64,000 nucleotides of DNA, taken from positions 17,622 through 81,621 of the forward strand of contig JAYFPE010000005.1 of the NCBI GenBank assembly GCA_034928145.1, in the 5' to 3' direction. The DNA comes from Candidatus Pelethousia sp. (lineage in GTDB: Bacteria; Bacillota; Clostridia; Christensenellales; CAG-138). The translations under genes were made by a program, and so were the position numbers. Below, piece by piece: positions 1-62,664 of this stretch (its first letter is position 1; every line of letters starts with the position of its first letter). The notes under the pieces are model-generated. The model saw only the letters and a program-made list of their open reading frames with translations, searched no databases and was not told where the DNA came from.

Positions 1-135
1 AACATATCCATACAGCTCTTGACACAAGGCGTTATCCAACGATGGCTGCATCGGTGCACCGCCTATAATCAAAATTGCTAAGGCCAAAGAGATAAGCACA
101 AAAGCAGTGACCGGCTTCCATACCCGTATTCGCAT
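1..135 (-). CDS. 5' part of a gene for a signal/TM-anchored protein; continues past the left edge
   Basis: A minus-strand ATG at 135 opens MRIRVWKPVTAFVLISLALAILIIGGAPMQPSLDN... and the frame stays open to position 1. The N-terminus is hydrophobic. Confidence 0.35.
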   Translation of the reverse strand, partial: MRIRVWKPVTAFVLISLALAILIIGGAPMQPSLDNALCQELYGYV

Positions 136-155
136 TTTTTTCGCCACAGGTTGCA

Positions 156-1634
156 TCATTTATTTCCCCTTTCTGCTACAGGCACTACGGCTGATATAAG
201 CAAGACAATAGAAAACAGAAAGATTGCGTCTCCCATCCATATGGACAAAATCGGAAAGACCGAGGATATAAACAAATACTTCTGGCAAGCACACCAGATC
301 AGAATTCCAAACAGAATAGATGCTGCACCAACTCGAAGCAATCTGAAACTGGTTCGCTTTTGCTGATAAAAAATCAGGACCAGACTCAATACCATCAGTA
401 GGCTTGCTGAGATTAGCATCCCGATCACGGCGCAGAGTCCGTAATGTCCCCAGATAATCCTTCCCATGCCAACGGACGGAAACGCTCGCCACTGCGCCCA
501 ATCACTTAAAACATATGCAATGAAAGGCCAGCTTCGTTGGCTGTTTGTAAGGATTACAATGGCATCGCCTGTTTCCGGAACAGTCTGGAAATGCGTCATG
601 ATGCCGTTGCCCTGGCCGCCGTGAGAAACTGAGAGCGCACCGTTTGGCAGCTTTTCGATATAGTGACCAAATCCATACGCCTCAAATATCAAACCGTAAA
701 TGCCGATTTTATGGCTTTGTGGAGCATACAGCAGCTTGATGCTTTCGCCACTTAACACAGAGTTTTCTTTCATCCCCACCGCCGCAAAGCGGGCAATATC
801 GTGAGCTGTGGCAAACAGACCACCCGAAGCCTTTGAGGGATAGAGATAGACCGGCACCGGCCTCCCGTCGAGGTTATAACCCGTTGGAGGATAAGGCGTC
901 GCCGTTGTGTCTATGTCAAAGGCTGCACTTTCCATGCCCAGAGGGAGAAAAATCTCCGTGCGGATATATTCCGAAAAGCTTTGCTCCGTGACATCCTCGA
1001 TTAATATTTCCAATAAATTATAACCTGTGTTGGAGTAGGAAAATCCCGTCCCCGCCTCGTGCGCCAGCGCCGCTTCCCCGGTCATCACATCCCGGTTAGA
1101 GGGCATTGTCTCGCCGGGGGAGTAGACATTGGTGAAATCGCCTAATGGCATCCCCGCAGTGTGGCTTAAAAGCTGCCGTGTTGTAATCTTTTCTGTCGGA
1201 TAGTCCGACTGCGGAAATCTCCAGCTTTTCAGGTACTGCGACACCGGAGCATCCAAGTCGATCAAGCCCTTTTCCACAAGTCGCATAACGCCCCAAGCTG
1301 TAACGGATTTTGTAATGGATTGAACGCTCATAGGAGTATTGACCGTCAGTTCTCTGCCGCTCGCCACATCTGCATATCCATAGGCCTCAGTCCATACGAC
1401 TTCATCGTCCTTCACAAGCCCGATGTTGCAGCCCGGAATTCCATACTGCTTCATCAGATCAGGAATGCGCTCGTCCATATGTGCCTTAAATTCATCAAGC
1501 GGCGCATCGGCGCTCATATTCCTCTTGATTTGCAGACTGTCGGAAAACAGCATGACGAGCAAGCTAATCAGTATGGATATAAGGATAAACCATATCCACA
1601 TCCTATAACCTCCGAGTATTTTTTCTCTTTTCAT
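156..1634 (-). CDS. Serine hydrolase, class C beta-lactamase / PBP-related, with C-terminal TM segments
   Basis: SxxK motif (SITKS) and YxN motif (YSNTGYN) in the translation. N-terminal TM helix and a hydrophobic C-terminal third. Confidence 0.8.
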   Translation of the reverse strand: MKREKILGGYRMWIWFILISILISLLVMLFSDSLQIKRNMSADAPLDEFKAHMDERIPDLMKQYGIPGCNIGLVKDDEVVWTEAYGYADVASGRELTVNTPMSVQSITKSVTAWGVMRLVEKGLIDLDAPVSQYLKSWRFPQSDYPTEKITTRQLLSHTAGMPLGDFTNVYSPGETMPSNRDVMTGEAALAHEAGTGFSYSNTGYNLLEILIEDVTEQSFSEYIRTEIFLPLGMESAAFDIDTTATPYPPTGYNLDGRPVPVYLYPSKASGGLFATAHDIARFAAVGMKENSVLSGESIKLLYAPQSHKIGIYGLIFEAYGFGHYIEKLPNGALSVSHGGQGNGIMTHFQTVPETGDAIVILTNSQRSWPFIAYVLSDWAQWRAFPSVGMGRIIWGHYGLCAVIGMLISASLLMVLSLVLIFYQQKRTSFRLLRVGAASILFGILIWCACQKYLFISSVFPILSIWMGDAIFLFSIVLLISAVVPVAERGNK

Positions 1635-53020: not shown

Positions 53021-53920
53021 CTAGAATTTGGCGATGACGGCGCCGCCGTAGGTGGCGTCGATGAACTGACGAACGGTCTCGCTCTGCAGGGCGGCGATGA
53101 GTGCCTTGGTGGCCTCGGTGTTCTCATTGCCTTCCTTAACGACGAGGATGTTAGCATAGGTCTCGGCGGCCACGGAATCCTTATCCTCAATGGCCAGGGC
53201 GTCGCTCACCTTCAGGTTGGCCTGGATGGCATAGTTGCCGTTGATCACGGCGACGTCCACATCCTGCAGGGCACGGGCCAACTGCGCTGCCTCGATCTCC
53301 TGAATATCCAGCTTCTTGGGGTTCTCGGCAATATCCAGCTTAGTGGCGGTGAGGCCGATGCCCTCCTTAAGCTTGATCAGGCCCTGGGCCTCGAGCAGCA
53401 ACAGCGCACGGGCTTCGTTGGTGCCGTCGTTGGGGATGGCTATGGTCGCGCCGTCGGCGAGATCCGCAAGGCTCGCGGTTTTTCCGGCATAGATGCCAAA
53501 GGGCTCATAGTGGACGGCTGCCACGGAAACCAGGTGCGTGCCGTTCTCGGCGTTGAAATCCGTAAGGTAGGGCTGGTGCTGGAAGTAGTTGGCATCCAGC
53601 TCGCCGCTCTCCAGGGCGGTGTTGGGAAGCACGTAATCGGTGAATTCCACGATCTCCAGCTCATAGCCGGCTGCGGCCAGTTCATCCTTGATAACGGCCA
53701 GGATCTCCGCATGCGGGGTGATGGAAGCGCCGACCTTGATCTTAACCAGCTCGGCGGAAGCGGCAGGCTCAGCCGCGGGCTCTGCGGGCTCGGCTGCCGG
53801 GGCAGCGGGTTCCGCAGGGGCGGCAGGTTGGGCGGCAGGTTGGGCGGCGGGTTGGGCGGCGCAGGCCGCAAGGGAGAGGGCCAGGACCAGGGCAAGGGTC
53901 AAAGTTAAGAGCTTCTTCAT
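53021..53920 (-). CDS. metQ: Methionine ABC transporter substrate-binding lipoprotein (NlpA/MetQ family)
   Basis: Lipobox LSLAAC, a Pro/Ala/Glu linker, then the MetQ core (IKVGASITPHAEIL...NYFQHQPYL). Confidence 0.9.
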   Translation of the reverse strand: MKKLLTLTLALVLALSLAACAAQPAAQPAAQPAAPAEPAAPAAEPAEPAAEPAASAELVKIKVGASITPHAEILAVIKDELAAAGYELEIVEFTDYVLPNTALESGELDANYFQHQPYLTDFNAENGTHLVSVAAVHYEPFGIYAGKTASLADLADGATIAIPNDGTNEARALLLLEAQGLIKLKEGIGLTATKLDIAENPKKLDIQEIEAAQLARALQDVDVAVINGNYAIQANLKVSDALAIEDKDSVAAETYANILVVKEGNENTEATKALIAALQSETVRQFIDATYGGAVIAKF

Positions 53921-53995
53921 GGTTAAATCCTCCTAATAAAATAATTTTTAAATGTATGCTGAACGCCTTGCGGCATTGCAGTTTATGGAGCGGAA

Positions 53996-54658
53996 TCAGC
54001 GCCTGCGCTTATCCGAAACGATGGTCAGCTTGTTTCCCGCGGCTTGGAACGCCTGCACGATGAGAACCAGGATCACCACGGCCATCCACATCATATCCGC
54101 CTGGTAGCGGTAATAGCCATAGTTGATGGCCACGGCGCCCAAGCCGCCGCCGCCCAGCGCGCCCGCCATGGCGGAGTAGCTGAGGATGGTGGTGGTGGCG
54201 ATAGTCGCCCCATTGATCAGGGAGGGCAGGCTCTCGGGCAAAAGCACCCGGGTGATAATCTGCCAGTTGGTTGCGCCCATGCTCTCTGCCGCTTCGATCA
54301 CGCCATGGTCGATCTCTTTGAGGGAGCCCTCCACCAAGCGGCCCACAAAGGGCGCGGCGGCGATGACCAGCGGCGGGATCACGGCCTTGGAGCCAATGGT
54401 AGTGCCAACCAGAAAACGGGTCAAGCCTAGAACGCATACGACGAGGATTAGGAAGGGTACGGAACGGAGCACATTTACCACAGCGCCCAAGGTCTGGTTA
54501 AAAGCAGGGCGGGGCTTGATGCCATCCTCCGCCGTGACCACCAGCAAAATGCCGATGGGAACGCCCAGGATATAGGCGATCACGGTGGAGACCAGCGTCA
54601 TGTAAAGGCTCGCCAGGGTCTCGTTGCCTAAGAGGGTCAGCATCTGCTGGTTAAACAT
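53996..54658 (-). CDS. metI: Methionine ABC transporter permease
   Basis: MetI pattern including the EAAESMGATNWQI EAA loop. Confidence 0.9.
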   Translation of the reverse strand: MFNQQMLTLLGNETLASLYMTLVSTVIAYILGVPIGILLVVTAEDGIKPRPAFNQTLGAVVNVLRSVPFLILVVCVLGLTRFLVGTTIGSKAVIPPLVIAAAPFVGRLVEGSLKEIDHGVIEAAESMGATNWQIITRVLLPESLPSLINGATIATTTILSYSAMAGALGGGGLGAVAINYGYYRYQADMMWMAVVILVLIVQAFQAAGNKLTIVSDKRRR

Positions 54659-55673
54659 GGTAAGCCTCCTCCTGGTAATTTACACCGTGCATTTCAAGGT
54701 AGCGCTTCATCTTTTCGACCACCGCGTCGTTCTCCGGCAGTTGCACCAAGGTGTAACCCACCATTTTGCCGTCGATGGTCTTGGTATCGGCAAAGAGGAT
54801 GTTCACGGGCGCGCCGCACTCAAGTACCATGCTGGTGATAACGGGGCTTGATGTCTTGGTGCCGTCGAAGATGATGCGCAGGCATCTCTCGCCCATCATC
54901 TCCTCGCCCAGGCGGCCGCTGGCGTAAAGCAGGCGCTTGGCGATCTCCGTTTGGGGCCGCATGAAGATATCCTCCACGCTGCCGATCTCGGCGATACGGC
55001 TGTTGTCGATAATGGCCACGCGGGAGCAGATCTCCTCGATCACGCTCATCTCGTGGGTGATCACCACGATGGTGATGCCCAGCTTCTGGTTGATCTCCCG
55101 CAAAAGGTCGAGGATGGAGCGCGTGGTGGTGGGGTCCAGGGCGCTGGTGGCCTCGTCACACAGGAGCACCTTGGGGTTGGCCGCCAGGGCCCTGGCGATG
55201 GCAACCCGCTGCTTTTGCCCGCCGCTGAGCTGGGCCGGATAGGCCTTTTCCTTATCCGTAAGCTCCACGATGGAGAGTAGCTCCCGCGCCCGCTTAACAG
55301 CGTCCGCCTTGGATACGCCCGCGATCTCCAGCGGGAAGCAGATGTTTTGCAGAGCCGTTTTCTGCATCAGCAGGTTAAACTGCTGGAAGATCATGCCCAT
55401 GTTGCGCCGGGCTGCCAGTAGCTCGCCCTCAGCCAGAAATTCCAGCGGCTGGCCGGCAATGACCACGCTGCCCTCGGTGGGCTTTTCCAAATAGTTCATG
55501 CAGCGCACCAGCGTGCTCTTGCCTGCGCCGGAGAGGCCGATGATGCCAAATATCTCCCCCTCGTAAATGGTCAGATCGATCCCGGAAAGGGCGGTGACCG
55601 CCGTATCCCCCGAGCCAAAGGTTTTATTCAACCCCCGGATGGTGATGATCTCGTTCCTGCTTGCCGCATTCAT
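54651..55673 (-). CDS. metN: Methionine ABC transporter ATP-binding protein with NIL domain
   Basis: GLSGAGKST, LSGGQKQRVAIARAL, LLCDEATSALD and a C-terminal NIL domain. The start is moved to MNAASRNE, after an AAGGAGG SD. Confidence 0.92.
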   Translation of the reverse strand: MNAASRNEIITIRGLNKTFGSGDTAVTALSGIDLTIYEGEIFGIIGLSGAGKSTLVRCMNYLEKPTEGSVVIAGQPLEFLAEGELLAARRNMGMIFQQFNLLMQKTALQNICFPLEIAGVSKADAVKRARELLSIVELTDKEKAYPAQLSGGQKQRVAIARALAANPKVLLCDEATSALDPTTTRSILDLLREINQKLGITIVVITHEMSVIEEICSRVAIIDNSRIAEIGSVEDIFMRPQTEIAKRLLYASGRLGEEMMGERCLRIIFDGTKTSSPVITSMVLECGAPVNILFADTKTIDGKMVGYTLVQLPENDAVVEKMKRYLEMHGVNYQEEAYHV

Positions 55674-55718
55674 GCGCCCGGTATACCTCCTTGAACCAAC
55701 TCGTATGATATCACACAT

Positions 55719-55751
55719 AAAAAGGGCCGTGAGCGTATACGCTCACGGCCC
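55719..55751 (-). terminator. Strong terminator inside the metN leader (candidate attenuator)
   Basis: On the minus strand: GGGCCGUGAGCG-UAUA-CGCUCACGGCCC (12 bp) followed by UUUUU, about 45 nt upstream of the metN ATG. Confidence 0.7.
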
Positions 55752-55770
55752 GGCTATATCCAAACTATGG

Positions 55771-55866
55771 CTATGCCAGCACCCATGGACGCACACGCTC
55801 TCCATGCCCGAAGGACATGGAGCCACACATCATCATGCCGCACATAGCCATGGCGAAATTCTTCAT
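55771..55866 (-). CDS. 31-codon Met/Cys-rich leader ORF upstream of metNIQ
   Basis: AAGGAG lies 8 nt before the ATG. The translation is MKNFAMAMCGMMMCGSMSFGHGERVRPWVLA, with 7 Met including an AUG-AUG-AUG run and 2 Cys. It lies between the promoter and the terminator. Confidence 0.5.
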   Translation of the reverse strand: MKNFAMAMCGMMMCGSMSFGHGERVRPWVLA

Positions 55867-55930
55867 AATGCTTGCTCCTTTCCTCCGTTCATAAGCGCTT
55901 AGCGCCCGCCGAAAAATCTTATTGCAATGT

Positions 55931-55959
55931 ATGATACCATGGCTGCCCTATCATGTCAA
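55931..55959 (-). promoter_or_regulatory. Sigma-A promoter of the met leader
   Basis: On the minus strand: TTGACA (55959-55954), a 17-nt spacer and TATCAT (55936-55931). Confidence 0.6.
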
Positions 55960-56000
55960 CCACAAAATATATATTTTCACTTTTGCCTATTCGGCTCTTT

Positions 56001-56153
56001 TCAGCCCTGGCCCTTATACTTGCGATAGGTAGCCATGCCGCCCCGGATATGCCGCTCCTCCTTGTTGCGCTTGAGGATCTGCCCCACGGCCAGCGCCCGG
56101 CAGGTGTCTAGCCCCGTCAGGCGCTCGGTCATATCCTTATGTAAGGTTGTCAT
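56001..56153 (-). pseudogene. spoIIID: 3' fragment of spoIIID (stage III sporulation regulator), interrupted by the mobile element
   Basis: The translation MTTLHKDMTERLTGLDTCRALAVGQILKRNKEERHIRGGMATYRKYKGQG aligns without gaps to the C-terminal half of B. subtilis SpoIIID (..STVHKDLTERLPEINPDLANEVKEILDYHKSIRHLRGGEATKLKYK..). An in-frame TAG lies at 56157-56159, and the N-terminal HTH part is absent. Confidence 0.8.
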
Positions 56154-57630
56154 TAACTAGAACGGTTTCATTCAGGCCTAAATCTCCCAGCAATCGCAGG
56201 TAAATGTCCACATTTCCGTCCTTATCCACCTCGATCTTCTGGATGATCTGCCTTAACTGGGCGTTGGTCATATCCCGTACTGATACAATATCCTCAATGG
56301 TTGAAAACGTGCGCCGAATGATGGTTTCAAGCTGGTCGCCCTTGTTGATGTTGTATTCCACCAGCTTAAGCTCGTTTTCCAGCCGCGCGATTTCTTCTTT
56401 TGACCCTCCGATTTTATCGTTTAGTTCTTGGCGGGTAATAAGGTCATCCGCATACATATCCATGTATTTTTGGCGGTTTCGGCTCAGCTTCGATAGCCTG
56501 TCCCTTAGTTCCTTTTCGTAATGCTCATTATCATGCTTGGCTTTATAAATGCGGGTGAATTCCTGTGTGACATTGCGTATCACCTTGCCTTTTTCCCGCA
56601 ATAGCTCCTTAAAATAAGCTTCTAAGGCTTCGATCAGCTCATCCTCATCCACTGTTACCGCATTGGGGCAGTTATCCGCGCCTTTGCCGTTATGGGAGGA
56701 ACAGACCCACCGCACATAGGTGTTTTTATAGGTTCGCACGGTACGGCGAAAAGACCAGCCGCACTCCTTGCATTTGATTAAGGTAGAAAACAGGTGTTTG
56801 TTGCTTTGGCGCTCTTTATTCACCTTGAACATCATTCCCCTGTTTCCCATGATCTCCTGCGCCTTATCGAATAGCTCTGGCTCGATGATACGCAAATCCG
56901 GCCGGTCGGCCACCATCCATTCCGCTTCATCCTTTTGTGCGCGCTGCCCGGTAAGGAAGTCCGTTACCTCCTGCTTTCCGTTGATGATCTTCCCCGTATA
57001 AAGCTCATTGGTCAGGATGCGGCAGGTGGCATTCTGGCTCCATTGGCAGTTTCGCTTTGTTTTGTACCCGCGCTCATTGAGCATGTTGGCGATCTTCGCG
57101 GCCCCATACCCCTCTTGGATGTACCATTGATAAATCTGCCGGATAACCGCCGCTTCCTCTTGATTGATCGCCAAGTTGAAATAATCCCCAATGGTCTTAT
57201 CGTAGCCATAGACGATATTAGGGACACGGCCCTTTTCCGCATTCATTTTCTTTCCAAACTTTACACGCTTAGAGGTATTGGCGCTTTCTTCTTGTGCCAA
57301 GGCCCCAAATATGGTCAGTACGAATTCCGAATTTCCCAATACGGTCATATTGGCCGTTAGGAACGTGGTTTCCACCCCTAGGGACTTTAGCTCCCGTATG
57401 CTCTGTAAAAAGTCCACCGTATTACGGGCAAAGCGGGAGATATCCTTCACCACCACCATATCGAAAATACCCTGCCGGGCATCCTGCATAAGCCGCAAGA
57501 ACTCCTTACGGTTCTTTATCTTCGTGCCGGATATTCCTTCGTCACGTTGTGTCAAGTAGGGACGTAAAAAAATATGAAACCTTTTTGGGGAATCTCTCTT
57601 AGCGTGTCGATTTTCTGCAAAACAAAGCAA
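56137..57630 (-). pseudogene. Large serine recombinase lacking the N-terminal catalytic-serine segment
   Basis: Homology starts at DEGISGTK (about 57540) and runs through VVVKDISRFARNT, the recombinase domain, a zinc ribbon (CKECG...C) and a coiled coil. The first roughly 30 codons (TTG start) do not resemble the YxRxSxxxQ catalytic motif. Confidence 0.75.
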
Positions 57631-57700
57631 AGAGGGCTGCCGTTCACAGGATAATGCCTGCGGACAGCTACCCCCTTTACCTTATCTTCTTGGCAGGTTT

Positions 57701-59293
57701 TTATTTCTGCCCATGTCCTTCTCCTTGGCCACGAAACGTCCAGTCGATATGAATGGACCTGTCATTGTAAACGTAGATGCAATCTACAAAATCAACTACC
57801 ATCTGCCGAGTAAGGGTATCTGCCTTCAAATATTGTAGGAGCTTTGGTTCTCCCTGTTTGGCAGCAGCAAGTTTGGCTTGCAGCTCGGCAAGCTCGGCTT
57901 CCAATCGGTTTGTCTGCCGCTCCATATCAGCCTGCTCCCGTGACAGCTTTTCACGCTGGTGCCGGTATTGCTCCCTGCTGATTTTTTCTTCTGCCATGGC
58001 ATCGTATAGTTCTGCTTTCTGTTCGGAAATTCCATTGCACGAGGATTGATAGACAGCTATTTGCTTCTGTTGCTTGGCCATGCGGTCATTGCTCCCAGCT
58101 TTTATCAAAAGGTCTTTTTCGTCCAATAAAACCTTGATGTAAATGTGGATGGCGGACAGGACAACGCCTGCGATTTCATCTTCCTTGATGTTACCTTTCA
58201 TACAGCCCAAGCCCGAGGTCTTGCTTTTTGTGTTGCAGAAAAATTGGGGAGTGGGAGTAGGTCGGCGGGACATGGCATGGCGGCAATGCCCACAGCGTAT
58301 TTTTTCGGTCAATAAATGAACACCGAACGGCACAGACTCCTTTTCTATAAACGGAGCCAAATTGTCCTGTGCCGCCTGAAATTCCTCTGTTGTCACAAGG
58401 GGTTCGTGTTTTTGTTCTACAACAATCCAGTCTGATTTATTGTTTTTCAGTGTCGTTTGATTTCCCACTTGTGGGCGGTATCGCTTGCCATAGATCACAG
58501 CGCCCAAATATCGTTCATCCCGCAGAATCCGTGTTATCATGGCATGATCCCAAAGGTCAGTACCTTCCACGCCGATCCACCATTTATGATGATGGCCCTG
58601 CTGATTTTTTATTTTGCTGGCAGTGGGTACTTTCTCCGAGTTAAACAGACGGGTAATCTCCAGTGTGGACATTCCCATTCCAGCTAACCGGAAGATACGC
58701 TGTACAATCCCGGCACTGTCCTCATCAACGACAAGCTGGTTTTTATTTTTCTTATCCTTGCGGTATCCGATGGGTGCAAAAGGGCTTAGATAATCCCCTT
58801 TGAGCGCCTTCGTTCGCTTGCCGCTTTTTACTTTCAGGGATAAGTCCTTGCTGTAATAGCCGTAAATCACGTTGCGAAAGGCAATGTCCACGCCACTGGT
58901 CTTTCCCTTCATCTTTGCACTGTCGTAGCCGTCGTTAACAGAAATAAATCGGATGCCTAAAAAGGGGAAAATCTGATCCACATAGTCGCTGACCGTGATG
59001 TAATCCCTGCCGAACCGTGAAAAGTCCTTGACAATGATGCAATCAAATTCCTTTGCCTTGGCTTTCTGTAAAAGCCTCTGCATATCAGGGCGCTGCATAT
59101 TGGTTCCCGAAAACCCGTCATCGCACAGCTCTATGATTTCACTGCCCCGAAATTCCGGGCAGCTTTCCACATAACGGCGGAGCAGCTCCCGCTGGTTAGT
59201 AACGCTGTTGCTTTCATCCTTGACCCCATCCCGGCTGTCCTCGTCCTCCACGGAAAGCCGGATATACAAAACGATAACATAGCTTTTATCCAT
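57701..59293 (-). CDS. Large serine recombinase (intact)
   Basis: VLYIRLSVEDED...SNSVTNQ catalytic motif, DDGFSGTN and IVKDFSRFGRDY. Its ATG overlaps the stop of the upstream recombinase gene. Confidence 0.9.
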   Translation of the reverse strand: MDKSYVIVLYIRLSVEDEDSRDGVKDESNSVTNQRELLRRYVESCPEFRGSEIIELCDDGFSGTNMQRPDMQRLLQKAKAKEFDCIIVKDFSRFGRDYITVSDYVDQIFPFLGIRFISVNDGYDSAKMKGKTSGVDIAFRNVIYGYYSKDLSLKVKSGKRTKALKGDYLSPFAPIGYRKDKKNKNQLVVDEDSAGIVQRIFRLAGMGMSTLEITRLFNSEKVPTASKIKNQQGHHHKWWIGVEGTDLWDHAMITRILRDERYLGAVIYGKRYRPQVGNQTTLKNNKSDWIVVEQKHEPLVTTEEFQAAQDNLAPFIEKESVPFGVHLLTEKIRCGHCRHAMSRRPTPTPQFFCNTKSKTSGLGCMKGNIKEDEIAGVVLSAIHIYIKVLLDEKDLLIKAGSNDRMAKQQKQIAVYQSSCNGISEQKAELYDAMAEEKISREQYRHQREKLSREQADMERQTNRLEAELAELQAKLAAAKQGEPKLLQYLKADTLTRQMVVDFVDCIYVYNDRSIHIDWTFRGQGEGHGQK

Positions 59294-60995
59294 TGACCGC
59301 CACCTCCATTGGGAACAACAGACACTCTTGCAGATGTCTGTATTCATCTTCAAAACGGAGATGTACCGTAACAGCGGTCTTGCTGTGGACAATCACATGA
59401 TCTACCAGTTCGAGAACCATCTTCCTTGTCAGCGCCGGTTCCTCATGGAAGGTCAGGAGCGTTCGCAACCATGGATTTTCCTCTGTTCGTGTTTCTGTGA
59501 CCGTCTGCTCCTGTGCCATAAGCTCATTCAAAAGGGCGGTCAACTCTGCCTCCTGTTCTTTATAGCGGTTTTGCGCATAAAGATAATCTCTTTCGTCCAT
59601 CAGACGGTCTAAGTAATCATCACAAAGACTTTCTCTCAGACGAGTAATCCGGTCAAGCTGCTCCTTCGTCTGATTGATATGGCGTCTGATTTTCTGCTTT
59701 TGGGAGAGAACGGCGTTCTGATTCGCCGCACTCCTGATGAGCTTTTCCATATCCAAAGCCATCATAAGCTGGGCCTGAATCACGCTGAAAACCGATTCTA
59801 AGAGGTCTGTCTCGGGTATGCTGATAAAGGAACACCGGTCGGTATCTGTGGCATGGACAGGACAAATATAGCTGTACCAAACGTGGAATTTCGGTTTTTT
59901 ATTTTTATTTTCCCGCACGTTTTTATAACGTACAAGACCCGTTTTGCAGCCACCGCAGCAGACAAGTCCTTTCAGGAGGTTTTCCGTGTTTACAACCTCT
60001 GCAAACCGGGCCTGCTTCTCGTAATACTCTCTTGTTACCTGCTCATTAAGCTGCTGTACGCTATCAAAAGTATCTTGGTCAATGATGGCCTCATGCGTGT
60101 TTTTTACAACAACCCACTGTTCTTTTGGTATTTGGGTCTGGCTCTGTCCTTTCCAAAGCGCCTCCTGTTTTCTGCCCTGTACCATATATCCCAAATAGAC
60201 CTCGTTGGACAGCATGGATTTAATGGCCGGTATTTTCCATACCGCATTGGCAAAGCGTTTGTCCTTTACCAGTCCTTTTTCAAAACGGTAACGGCTGGGG
60301 GATGGAATATCCCGCCGATTCAGTTCCCATGCGATGTTCTGATAGCTCATTCCCGAAAGCCGCCAGTGGAAAATATCACGAACAGTGGGGGCGGTATCAT
60401 CGTCCACAATCAGGCGATGCTTATCTTCCGGGTCTTTTAAGTAGCCATAAGCCGCCCATGCACCGATAAATTCGCCTCGTTCCTGCTTGCCACGCAGGAC
60501 AGGACAGATTTTTTGAGAGATGTCACGGGCATACACATCATTCACAAGATTTTTCAGGTTTATGGTAAGGCTGTCAAGGGTGGATGGATCAAGGCTGTCG
60601 TAACCATCGTTTACAGCGATGAAGCGCACTCCCATGAACGGGAATATCTTTTCCAAATATTCTCCGGCCTCAATGTAGTTTCTGCCGAAACGGGAAAGGT
60701 CTTTGACAATGACGCAATCCACATTGCCCATTCGTATATCATCCAAAAGGCGTTCAAAATCATCCCGTGCGAAGTTGACCCCTGTTTCCCCATTATCCGA
60801 GTAGACCGAATAGAGGGACAGGCTTGGGTCGCCCGCAATATAAGCACGGAGTATGGCTTCCTGATTTTCAATGGAATCACTGTTTTCACGATGTCCGTTC
60901 AGTACGGAAAGCCGCACATAGGCACCCGCTTTGTAGACCCTTCGCTTTGTTTCCTGCGGTATGGGAGCCTGTCTGAATTTACTTTTTCTTGCCAT
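59286..60995 (-). CDS. Large serine recombinase (intact)
   Basis: AYVRLSVLNG...SDSIENQ, DNGETGVN and IVKDLSRFGRNY. Its start lies 1 nt after the upstream stop. Confidence 0.9.
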   Translation of the reverse strand: MARKSKFRQAPIPQETKRRVYKAGAYVRLSVLNGHRENSDSIENQEAILRAYIAGDPSLSLYSVYSDNGETGVNFARDDFERLLDDIRMGNVDCVIVKDLSRFGRNYIEAGEYLEKIFPFMGVRFIAVNDGYDSLDPSTLDSLTINLKNLVNDVYARDISQKICPVLRGKQERGEFIGAWAAYGYLKDPEDKHRLIVDDDTAPTVRDIFHWRLSGMSYQNIAWELNRRDIPSPSRYRFEKGLVKDKRFANAVWKIPAIKSMLSNEVYLGYMVQGRKQEALWKGQSQTQIPKEQWVVVKNTHEAIIDQDTFDSVQQLNEQVTREYYEKQARFAEVVNTENLLKGLVCCGGCKTGLVRYKNVRENKNKKPKFHVWYSYICPVHATDTDRCSFISIPETDLLESVFSVIQAQLMMALDMEKLIRSAANQNAVLSQKQKIRRHINQTKEQLDRITRLRESLCDDYLDRLMDERDYLYAQNRYKEQEAELTALLNELMAQEQTVTETRTEENPWLRTLLTFHEEPALTRKMVLELVDHVIVHSKTAVTVHLRFEDEYRHLQECLLFPMEVAVNG

Positions 60996-60996
60996 G

Positions 60997-62664
60997 CTAT
61001 ACCACCTCCCTGTTGGAAGATGACTCTGGCACAATGCGTTCCACGCACTGAATCAAGGCCAGCGTATTTTCATATTCACACCGAAATTTGAAATGAATAT
61101 GAATACGCTGGTTTTCGTACACAGAAATTCGGTCAATTAGCTCAACCGCCAGCCTGCGGTTTAATGTTTCAATATCCTGGTGCTGTTTGAAGTAGGCGAT
61201 CCACTGCTGTTCCTCGGATTTCCCCTCCACAAGACGGTCGATTTCCTGATTCAGTGACAGGATGGCATCCTCGGCTTCTTTCACTTTATGGTCGTACCGC
61301 TTGCCAAATGCGATATAGTCCTCACGGGTGATGATGCCGTCTGTATAATCCTCATGGAGCTTCATCCGGTAACGCCGATATTTCTCCACCTCGGCTTGCT
61401 TGGCGTTCAGCCTTTCATCCGTCTTTTTGACCTGCCTACTGGTATAAGGTAATTTTGCAATATCGGCAAGGGTCTGTTCTATATCAAGAATGAAACGGAT
61501 ATGCTGCTGAACCGCAGCAAACACAGCCTCCGCAAGCAATTCATCACGGATACTGTGGCTTTTACATCCGCTTTTTTCCTTGCTGCCGGAACAGATATAA
61601 TAGTAATAGGGATTACTGGCGGTGGAATTATTCTTGCGAACCATGCTCCGTCCGCAATCGGCACAGTAAAGCAGTCCGGCAAGCGGAAAAAGAGTCTCCT
61701 CGCCGGGAGCCGTGCGGGTATCGGAACGCAGAATTTTTGCGGCATTCTCAAAGGTATCCCTGCTCACAATCGGCTCATGGGTGTTTTCCGTGACTGCCCA
61801 TTGCTCCTGCGGAACCGCAAACTGCTTTTTCACCTTGTAGTTGGGACTGCTGCGTTTTCCCTGTTCCAATATACCAATGTACAGAGGATTCTTGAGGATA
61901 CGCAAAACGGTAACTGCCGTCCATTGCGCTTTTGGATTTCTCTTGAATGGTGATTTATAGTTGCTGCCTATCAGCCGTTTGTACTCTAATGGAGAGGGGA
62001 TATCACGCTTGTTCGTGTATTCGGCAATCGCCTGTGCGGAATATCCATTCAAGAACAGTTTGAATATATCCTGCACCACACCGGCCGCAAACTCATCAAC
62101 CATCAGGCGGTGCTTATCCTCCGGGGCTTTCAGATAACCGAAGGCGGCAAAGGGAGCGATAAACTGCCCCTTTCTGCGCTTGATTTCAAGCTGACTACGG
62201 ATTTTAATGGAAATATCCCGGCAGTACGCATCGTTCATCAGGTTTTTGACAGGTACAATCAAATTGTCCGATGCCGTTTTCGGTTTGGCGCTGTCATAAT
62301 CATCGTTGATGGAAATGAAACGCACACCCATAAAAGGGAATATTTTTTCAATGTATTTTCCCGTTTCGATAAAATTTCTGCCAAGGCGGGAAAAGTCCTT
62401 CACAATAATACAGTTGATTTCCTTGTTTTTGACTGACTCCATCATTTCGATAAAATCAGGACGGTCAAAATTGACCCCGGTATAGCCATCGTCTATCCGC
62501 ACTTTATGCAGAGTGATTTCGGGGTGGGACTCCAAAAAGGCGGAAATTAAATCCCGCTGGTTTGCGATACTGTCGCTTTCGGATTTGTTTACATCCTCTT
62601 TATCACCGTCCTCACGGGATAGCCGGAGGTACATATCCGCATAATAAGTGGTTTTTATATTCAT
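60997..62664 (-). CDS. Large serine recombinase (intact)
   Basis: MYLRLSREDGD...SDSIANQ, DDGYTGVN and IVKDFSRLGRNF. Confidence 0.9.
   Translation of the reverse strand: MNIKTTYYADMYLRLSREDGDKEDVNKSESDSIANQRDLISAFLESHPEITLHKVRIDDGYTGVNFDRPDFIEMMESVKNKEINCIIVKDFSRLGRNFIETGKYIEKIFPFMGVRFISINDDYDSAKPKTASDNLIVPVKNLMNDAYCRDISIKIRSQLEIKRRKGQFIAPFAAFGYLKAPEDKHRLMVDEFAAGVVQDIFKLFLNGYSAQAIAEYTNKRDIPSPLEYKRLIGSNYKSPFKRNPKAQWTAVTVLRILKNPLYIGILEQGKRSSPNYKVKKQFAVPQEQWAVTENTHEPIVSRDTFENAAKILRSDTRTAPGEETLFPLAGLLYCADCGRSMVRKNNSTASNPYYYYICSGSKEKSGCKSHSIRDELLAEAVFAAVQQHIRFILDIEQTLADIAKLPYTSRQVKKTDERLNAKQAEVEKYRRYRMKLHEDYTDGIITREDYIAFGKRYDHKVKEAEDAILSLNQEIDRLVEGKSEEQQWIAYFKQHQDIETLNRRLAVELIDRISVYENQRIHIHFKFRCEYENTLALIQCVERIVPESSSNREVV

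Follow-up and report, generated by a model that had tools for sequence, protein, structure and literature searches.

How is the methionine transporter operon metNIQ controlled where none of the familiar RNA switches precedes it? S-box riboswitches (SAM-I; SAM, S-adenosylmethionine) and methionine T-boxes are terminator/antiterminator switches in metNIQ-type leaders of Firmicutes, and S-box and T-box control is reportedly usual for methionine genes in this phylum, a view ascribed to Rodionov et al. in 2004. The locus that raises the question lies on the minus strand of a 64,000-nucleotide stretch of Candidatus Pelethousia sp. (contig JAYFPE010000005.1), referred to below as the window, where a promoter, a small open reading frame (ORF) rich in Met and Cys codons and an intrinsic terminator stand ahead of metN. 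As judged from sequence comparison and modelled folding, this element is probably a ribosome-mediated (leader-peptide) transcription attenuator of metNIQ that responds to methionine and cysteine.

All elements were read on the minus strand, for which positions 55500-56200 were read and the ORFs listed (Table 1). Only one promoter-like site is found within 1.5 kb; it matches 11 of the 12 consensus positions, the TG of an extended -10 is present, and we infer a transcription start near 55924. The 5' untranslated region (UTR) ahead of the leader ORF is about 58 nucleotides (nt) long and carries a strong Shine-Dalgarno (SD) sequence. The terminator, GGGCCGUGAGCG-UAUA-CGCUCACGGCCC at 55751-55724, begins exactly 19 nt downstream of the leader stop codon, has 10 G-C pairs among its 12 and is followed by U5 at 55723-55719. 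The preliminary description of this DNA had listed a near-consensus promoter, an SD, a 31-codon ORF with seven AUG codons, a terminator and a metN SD, and each is present as claimed. The same holds for three AUG codons in a row with Cys codons (AUG-AUG-AUG-UGU, 55836-55825), three CCAUG/CAUGG segments and a GAGAGCG segment. The leader (256 nt) folds with z = -4.4 against dinucleotide shuffles, and its 24-nt core motif occurs once in the window, where 0.00 occurrences are expected. Because the core motif is unique, the fold deviates this far from shuffles, and the ORF and its Met run are conserved, the feature lies beyond chance.

The known RNA families do not include this leader, and Rfam 15 holds no model for a Met/Cys leader element. 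A permissive search (E<=10) of 55400-56300 returned three matches, all at chance level and to unrelated families; SAM riboswitches and T-boxes were not among them. At Rfam gathering scores, the whole window gave only two tRNAs, and 40 related metN loci gave only tRNAs. SAM riboswitches (SAM-I/S-box, SAM-II to SAM-VI and SAM/SAH) were rejected for lack of any covariance-model match in the leader, the window or the 40 loci, and the T-box leader (RF00230, with its specifier loop, T-box sequence and antiterminator bulge) was likewise without a match in all three. Since these scans were negative, both classes are ruled out within the power of covariance models, which agrees with the initial impression that S-box and T-box sequences are missing here.

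Conservation of the element was followed by a MetN scan with one genome per GTDB species, which gave 80 loci. The leader-ORF criterion, a 12-residue window with at least three Met and at least five Met plus Cys, was applied to the 76 loci with enough upstream sequence. A Met/Cys-dense small ORF was found upstream of metN in 52 of these 76 Clostridia loci, against 2 on the antisense strand, 0.85 in mononucleotide shuffles and 2/77 in 3 kb of downstream coding sequence. The leaders fall into at least three sequence subtypes, with intermediates between them (for example the loci numbered L012 and L006), and common to all are only the SD, in-frame AUG/UGY codons and the terminator. No common unpaired aptamer-like core was found when types A, B and C were compared.

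Type A is kept in Ca. Pelethousia, other uncultured Clostridia, Christensenellaceae, Acutalibacteraceae and Oscillospiraceae, in which MetN is 79-96% identical. These relatives retain the promoter, SD, ORF, MMM(M)C run and terminator, while the N- and C-terminal codons vary; the ORF core GMMM(M)C[GCR]SMS[FL](G)HGE is kept in L001 and L003-L010. TTGACA with a good -10 stands at the same position in 11/11 leaders of types A and C. More distant loci (MetN 62-68% identity), from Herbinix, Mobilitalea, Lachnospiraceae and many metagenome-assembled genomes of Bacillota, carry other Met/Cys-rich small ORFs at the same position. The conserved short ORF with a Met run that the preliminary description had envisaged upstream of metN orthologues is found in related and distant Clostridia alike. 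The larger subfamily, type B, lies within L013-L080 and follows the pattern MRTSxxxMCxNMCGMCSMP, as in L030:2705-2921 (Herbinix hemicellulosilytica) and L079:2466-2674 (Mobilitalea sibirica). Its own conserved RNA blocks are ACAUAUUUGC, GAUAGGUGAAUGUGRUGUUUUCAU and a terminator CAGGAnGCUAUC...UCCUG. An RNA motif defined independently of the ORF also identifies type B, and the ORF is present in 32/32 such complete loci. As type B occurs in cultured type strains, experiments are possible. Type C follows the pattern MxxxAMxMCRMCVIMLP...GCMRF. Many of the type B leaders among L014-L035 have a tRNA-Thr(GGU) gene and a tRNA-Pro gene side by side immediately 5' of the promoter, some 100-400 nt before the leader; this is probably synteny only, because neither is tRNA-Met or tRNA-Cys.

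The reach of the element was also followed beyond these loci. An exact-motif scan of metagenome contigs gave 85 loci, nearly all from a few gut species and with no new downstream genes; three of its matches (L084, L093 and L122) were discarded as chance occurrences within long ORFs. A phmmer search with the 31-residue peptide against 1.84 billion representative proteins returned only the peptide itself and one other, and a peptide this short is intractable in this way. No other Met/Cys leader in an SD and terminator context was found in the 64-kb window or in the retrieved metN loci (about 530 kb). Because the scans gave no further Met/Cys leaders, a regulon beyond metNIQ is not demonstrable.

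Several signs of translation are carried by the leader ORFs. An SD-like sequence, mostly AAGGAG or GGAGG, lies 5-10 nt before the start codon in 53/53 of them, and in two (L022 and L030) GUG replaces AUG as the start. The 52 unique leader peptides contain 19.3% Met and 11.5% Cys. Of their internal ATG triplets, 304 are in frame, compared with 34 and 32 in the two alternative frames, a count partly biased by the way in which the ORFs were chosen. In a MAFFT alignment of 32 type B leaders, the gaps within the Met/Cys part are all multiples of three (3, 18 and 21 nt), and gaps of 1 and 2 nt appear directly after the last Met-Pro, where the stop position varies too. Across the family the peptides range from 19 to more than 40 residues and have variable C-termini, and gene callers have predicted them in public assemblies, always unnamed. 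This evidence is indirect and consistent, and it suggests that the leader ORF is translated.

The competing structures were examined in leader numbering, which starts at about the transcription start (window coordinate = 55925 - leader nt). Equilibrium folding of the whole leader with the ribosome footprint as the sole constraint retained the terminator in most states and paired the 5' UTR around the ribosome. It was replaced by downstream-only folding because it was judged sterically unrealistic. In the replacement only RNA downstream of the stalled ribosome was folded, the first free nucleotide being the A-site nucleotide + 14. The anti-antiterminator, hairpin 1:2, is CUCCAUGUCC-UUC-GGGCAUGGAG (-15.0 kcal/mol), and in the footprint model a ribosome stalled on the AUG run covers its segment 1. 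With the A site on AUG92, AUG95, UGU98 or GGC101, the minimum free energy (MFE) structure is an extended antiterminator at -48.9 kcal/mol, whereas the best folds that contain the terminator reach -48.3, -46.0, -45.6 and -45.6 kcal/mol, respectively. The extended antiterminator pairs GGGC..GAGCGUGUGCGU.CAUGG with CCGUG.AGCGUAUACGCUC..GCCC. The alternative folds proposed earlier are thereby recovered: when the ribosome is on the AUG run or the Cys codon, the MFE structure joins the 3' portion of the ORF to the terminator region, and the suggested pairing of GAGAGCG with CGCUC in the terminator 3' arm belongs to this antiterminator. For A-site positions AUG74-AUG89, the model forms hairpin 1:2 and prefers the terminator fold (-54.7 to -59.2 kcal/mol), and the terminator also forms when the ribosome is at the stop codon UAG152. 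The result holds when the footprint edge is set 12 instead of 14 nt after the A site, the productive codons then being AUG95, UGU98 and GGC101.

In ribosome-free RNA, the entire 3' half of the ORF is taken up by a duplex with the 5' UTR and its SD (-43.8 kcal/mol), and the terminator forms. This duplex sequesters both the SD and the antiterminator strand. The ribosome-free fold of type C has the same architecture in other sequences (GGGAUCACACA/UGUGUGAUC..CUCCC). When the RNA ends before the terminator 3' arm, the 5' arm and loop pair with segment 2b unless a ribosome is at the stop codon. In the window this involves UGUGCGU with GCGUAUA and CAUGG with CCGUG (duplex -15.1 kcal/mol), and pairing of the terminator 5' arm with the ORF 3' block before the 3' arm is transcribed was found in 8/8 leaders computed from types A and C and L012. 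The folding model casts the leader in trp-type 1:2 / 2:3 / 3:4 logic, in which the regulatory codons sit directly before segment 1.

Comparison of leaders supports these pairings. When the antiterminator was tested on 11 leaders (types A, C and L012), pairing in its core helix UGUGCGU x GCGUAUA reached 95.7%, the pair types being UA/UG/CG, AU/GU and GU/GC. For the whole tested structure the figure is 84.3%, and it drops to 20-57% if the partners are slid against each other. The partners differ by lineage: UGUGCGU/GCGUAUA in the window, GUAUGC/GCAUAC in L006, GCGCUUGCG/CGUAAGCGC in L008-L010 and UAUGCGUUU/AAGCGUAUA in L046. In the same 11 leaders, four pairs of the terminator stem show compensatory changes on both sides, and RNAalifold recovers the terminator and one weak alternative helix and not the full switch. 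All type A lineages retain hairpin 1:2, as does L006 in spite of losing 3 nt (one codon); L012 has a hairpin of different sequence in its place. On inspection of the sequences, the stop codon always lies 3-15 nt downstream of the antiterminator block, so that a terminating ribosome would mask this block. The elements, the competing pairings predicted from them and the conservation of both are what the compared sequences and modelled folds show.

In type B, segment S3 (GAUAG...GUGUUUUCAU) pairs with the ORF start AUGAGAACAUC, with a mean of -14.1 against -5.3 for shuffled sequences (32 sequences). Alternatively, it pairs with AUGAAAAC and the terminator CUAUC, with a mean of -16.4 against -9.1 shuffled (32/32). 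The ORF start in turn pairs with the GAUGUUUUCAU block. In the type B alignment, 93.4% of cells are paired against at most 54% when slid, and there is one UA/UG/CG compensatory pair. Judged from these alignments, type B would be the same switch principle in other sequences.

Those features of the attenuator class that can be examined in silico are found here: an SD-led ORF behind a promoter, enrichment in Met/Cys codons, an intrinsic terminator before the structural genes, a conserved ORF with conserved codons at the same locus and, in the thermodynamic model only, an antiterminator that excludes the terminator and an anti-antiterminator that a ribosome stalled at the regulatory codons masks. 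In the proposed mechanism, transcription would start from the strong promoter and a ribosome would load onto the leader ORF. With ample Met-tRNA and Cys-tRNA, it would reach the UAG and cover or unwind the antiterminator strand in the 3' part of the ORF; the 12-bp terminator would form and most transcripts would stop ahead of metN. When charged tRNA-Met or tRNA-Cys is scarce, the ribosome would stall on AUG-AUG-AUG-UGU and cover segment 1 (CUCCAUGUCC), which would block hairpin 1:2. The freed segment 2 (GGGCAUGGAG-AGCGUGUGCGU-CCAUGG) would pair with the emerging terminator region, the terminator would be pre-empted, and RNA polymerase would continue into metNIQ. In an untranslated leader the 5' UTR would pair with segment 2, with termination as the default. 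Methionine, and also cysteine, would probably be sensed; both stalling at Met/Cys codons as the signal and this direction of the response are what we infer.

Table 1. Positions in the window of the metNIQ leader, its parts and the downstream genes
Feature	Position	Strand	Remarks
Sigma-70-type promoter	55931..55959	-	-35 TTGACA 55959-55954, 17-nt spacer, extended -10 TGgTATCAT, TATCAT 55936-55931
5' UTR	55873..55912	-	Small GC hairpin GGGCGCUAAGCGC and SD region
Leader SD AAAGGAG	55875..55881	-	8 nt upstream of leader AUG
Leader ORF MKNFAMAMCGMMMCGSMSFGHGERVRPWVLA	55771..55866	-	31 codons and UAG; 7 Met, 2 Cys
Proposed sensor codons AUG-AUG-AUG-UGU (Met11-13, Cys14)	55825..55836	-	Ribosome-footprint folding
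Additional proposed sensor codons	AUG 55851-55849, AUG 55845-55843, UGC 55842-55840, AUG 55818-55816	-	
Segment 1 CUCCAUGUCC	55813..55822, leader nt 103-112	-	5' arm of hairpin 1:2 (anti-antiterminator)
Segment 2 (2a + 2b)	55783..55809	-	
Segment 2a GGGCAUGGAG	55809-55800, leader nt 116-125	-	3' arm of hairpin 1:2
Segment 2b AGCGUGUGCGUCCAUGG	55799-55783, leader nt 126-142	-	Antiterminator 5' strand
Spacer hairpin CUGGCAUAGCC...GGAUAUAGCC	55752..55779	-	Holds UAG stop; sequence differs among lineages
Intrinsic terminator (segments 3 + 4)	55719..55751	-	12-bp stem, UAUA loop, U5; -25.8 kcal/mol
Terminator 5' arm GGGCCGUGAGCG	Leader nt 174-185	-	
Terminator 3' arm CGCUCACGGCCC	Leader nt 190-201	-	Terminator -25.8 kcal/mol
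Regulated operon including metN SD	53021..55692	-	Putative target of leader
metN SD AAGGAGG	55692-55686	-	
metN	55673-54651	-	ATG at 55673; NCBIfam best match MetN TIGR02314, 1.8e-103
metI	54658-53996	-	NCBIfam best match MetI NF008049, 5e-63
metQ	53920-53021	-	NCBIfam best match MetQ/NlpA family, 3e-62

Several points weigh against attenuation by stalling at Met and Cys codons. In the stalled state the antiterminator beats the terminator folds by just 0.6-3.3 kcal/mol, and stalls at the earlier Met codons (Met6 and Met8) do not favour it at equilibrium. Tested against shuffles sequence by sequence, the antiterminator duplex has modest z-scores (-0.8 to -3.5 for type A leaders, near zero for L012 and those of type C), and covariation is sparse, the type A core being almost invariant. 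Too little methionine should, by way of fMet-tRNA, also hold back initiation on the leader, and under the classical scheme this means termination. The recurrent interleaving of Cys codons is unexplained by a purely Met-specific sensor, and it may reflect dual sensing of Met and Cys. Finally, the nucleotide-invariant core could have a ligand-related function at the level of the peptide or of the RNA.

In the first alternative, the conserved nascent peptide (MMMC.SMS[FL]GHGER; in type B MC.NMCGMC.MP) would arrest the ribosome in response to a small molecule, for example methionine, SAM or some redox or metal signal, as TnaC does with tryptophan, and tRNA charging would not be the signal. Conservation of SMS[FL]GHGER after the Met run across the type A lineages fits this idea, as do the alignment of Met and Cys positions across subtypes, beyond mere abundance, and population variants in the N-terminal codons that are mostly synonymous. 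However, the invariant third positions in SMSFGHGE all lie within the stems of hairpin 1:2, so RNA pairing accounts for them. The subtypes share no peptide motif beyond the Met/Cys pattern, the position of the stop codon varies within type B, and enrichment of cognate codons is the classical hungry-codon signature; arrest by the nascent peptide is considered unlikely. A related thought concerns the M-C-x-x-M-C-G-M-C interleaving, whose positions are conserved over three unrelated-looking subtypes and which recurs independently in Streptomyces. It is a long shot that this pattern marks a nascent-chain sensor (of methionine, SAM, or a redox or metal cue) or the two-signal core of a Clostridia-wide "sulfur ribulon". 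If either were true, the problem of initiation requiring Met would be solved in some way not yet understood.

The second alternative makes the ORF incidental to a translation-independent RNA sensor, which would be either a riboswitch of a new kind or the binding site of a protein specific for AUGUG repeats. The ribosome-free MFE structure is a long helix between the 5' UTR and the ORF with conserved architecture, the type A core is nucleotide-invariant, AUGUGY repeats occur at 9-nt spacing, and the conserved "MRTS" N-terminus of type B is accounted for by the pairing of AUGAGAACAUC with GAUGUUUUCAU. All of this would suit an RNA sensor. The signs of translation speak against it: a strong SD and a start codon are retained in 53/53 leaders, through AUG-to-GUG changes in L022 and L030, the internal ATG triplets keep to the frame (304 against 34 and 32), and the frame-preserving indels are found solely in the Met/Cys part. 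Moreover, a conserved unpaired aptamer-like core shared by types A, B and C and a match in Rfam are both lacking, and an RNA sensor of this kind seems improbable. It is very improbable that the ORF simply encodes a small functional peptide rich in Met and Cys (one that binds metals or scavenges oxidants, say), co-expressed with the transporter ahead of a leaky or ordinary terminator. Met/Cys-rich peptides are able to bind metals, and gene callers predict this one in many assemblies. Against this reading, the length (19 to >40 residues) and C-terminus of the peptide vary freely; across about 530 kb of related loci the ORF was found nowhere but immediately 5' of metN, with a conserved terminator between the two in every case; and in all subfamilies its 3' block is complementary to the terminator apex, which would be needless for a free-standing peptide gene.

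Attenuation of metNIQ by leader translation, the preferred reading, can be set beside known systems. The E. coli leaders trpL, hisL, pheL, thrL, leuL and ilvL likewise have a short SD-led ORF, cognate codons, a terminator and four-segment logic, which is in silico in the present case. The Clostridial leaders differ from them in that the sensed codons would be AUG interleaved with UGY, the target is a transporter instead of a biosynthetic pathway, the host belongs to the Clostridia within the Firmicutes, and an extra pairing of the 5' UTR and SD with the ORF is predicted for the untranslated state. No sequence similarity links them to any Rfam leader family. S-box and T-box elements occupy the same position and do the same job; in contrast, they sense SAM or uncharged tRNA by RNA, without translation.

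The only precedent found is "metL" of Streptomyces lividans TK24, a leader peptide predicted ahead of metNIQ, which is functionally unvalidated and, according to its authors, leaderless and without a typical Rho-independent terminator (PMC8079986). It shares with the Clostridial leaders the metNIQ operon and a small upstream ORF with a C-M-C-x-x-M-C cluster (MSTTSDRTPATEATTTPGARCMCRRMCAF; CMCRRMC), whereas only the Clostridial leaders have an SD and a terminator. Because there is no sequence relationship between them, an independent origin of metL is likely. In Rhodobacterales, the uORFC-8-2 motif ahead of cysS has been proposed to control the downstream gene by stalling at Cys codons (PMC8632094). 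In mycobacteria such control was shown for leaderless small ORFs encoding polycysteine, which act on translation by unmasking a ribosome-binding site (bioRxiv 10.1101/834739). Both resemble the present leaders in stalling at sulfur-amino-acid codons of a short upstream ORF, but they are Cys-only, whereas the Clostridial leaders combine an SD, a mix of Met and Cys, and an intrinsic terminator. Membership of the leaderless actinobacterial Cys/Met class was also considered and rejected on the strength of the long 5' UTR (~58 nt), strong SD, terminator and unpaired metN SD. Leader peptides were long thought to be absent from Firmicutes save for His examples (PMC2965389), and no description of a Met-codon leader in Firmicutes was found in the full-text literature, subscription journals being outside its coverage. 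The earlier statement that such attenuation was not known to have been described for this operon is nearly right: nothing was found for Firmicutes, and the exception is the predicted metL of S. lividans. The Met/Cys leaders form a broad group in Clostridia that is apparently undescribed.

The genes downstream fit the names given in Table 1, with the reservation that, by NCBIfam curated cut-offs, MetI is just at its cut-off and MetN and MetQ are below theirs. The metN SD is unpaired in the MFE fold. Population variants cluster in the spacer hairpin stretch, 55752..55779. Just past the U tract, TGATATCAT at 55705-55713 (minus strand) is a copy of the extended -10 of the main promoter (TGgTATCAT) without a -35; it is not kept in relatives (L001 has GGATATCAT, L004 nothing similar) and may be coincidental or may act as a weak internal promoter. 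An AUG without its own SD, at 55890-55892 (minus strand) and some 10 nt before the leader SD, starts a 9-codon frame whose UGA overlaps the leader AUG (AUUAUGA). It has equivalents in L003, L006 and L008-L010, and UUG/GUG in some L004-like variants. Its role is more probably that of one of six self-complementary (C/U)AUG units, which can pair with each other.

The neighbouring locus is also unusual. Just upstream of the leader promoter, a 50-residue ORF (56001-56153, minus strand) represents only the C-terminal 46 residues of SpoIIID (TIGR02844 positions 34-79 of 80). Homology to the intact spoIIID of other strains ends at window position 56138, in ...KSTV|HKD. Directly beyond it lie four tandem ORFs of 497-582 residues (56137-62664, minus strand), of which two were scanned and both are CcrB/XisF-like large serine recombinases. 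Because of the homology break, the recombinases and the absence of the 5' part of spoIIID from the window, the gene looks interrupted by an integrated skin-like element of at least 7.9 kb. The strain of locus L166, with an identical leader peptide, has an intact 83-residue spoIIID and a second truncated copy about 1.5 kb upstream (L166:1946-2149 and L166:3614-3865). The truncated copy has the first 37 residues in common and diverges at exactly the same KSTV junction, and the compared sequences suggest a recurrent integration site inside spoIIID. Protein clustering at 90% identity places the 31-residue leader peptide MNSVSMTMCAMMMCGSMSFGHGERVRAWTLA with 84-residue SpoIIID proteins, presumably an artefact of read-through gene calls over both neighbours and a caution for the use of such clusters for small proteins.

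Textbook control of methionine genes comprises the MetJ repressor, S-box and other SAM riboswitches, Met T-boxes and MtaR/CmbR-type regulators. To our knowledge, leader-peptide attenuation is classical for Trp, His, Phe, Leu, Thr and Ile/Val and not for Met; a reason sometimes offered is that initiation needs Met-tRNA too. What is new here is most likely the amino-acid specificity (Met), the clade and the transporter target, the mechanism itself being familiar. In genome annotation, these ORFs of 19-40 codons are called as unnamed hypothetical proteins or missed. A widespread Met/Cys leader before metNIQ would fill a gap, namely a missing regulatory class for sulfur amino acids. Its carriers include gut Christensenellales and Oscillospirales as well as cultured Herbinix and Mobilitalea, and the cultured carriers would offer a tractable system in which to learn how a hungry-AUG sensor coexists with AUG initiation.

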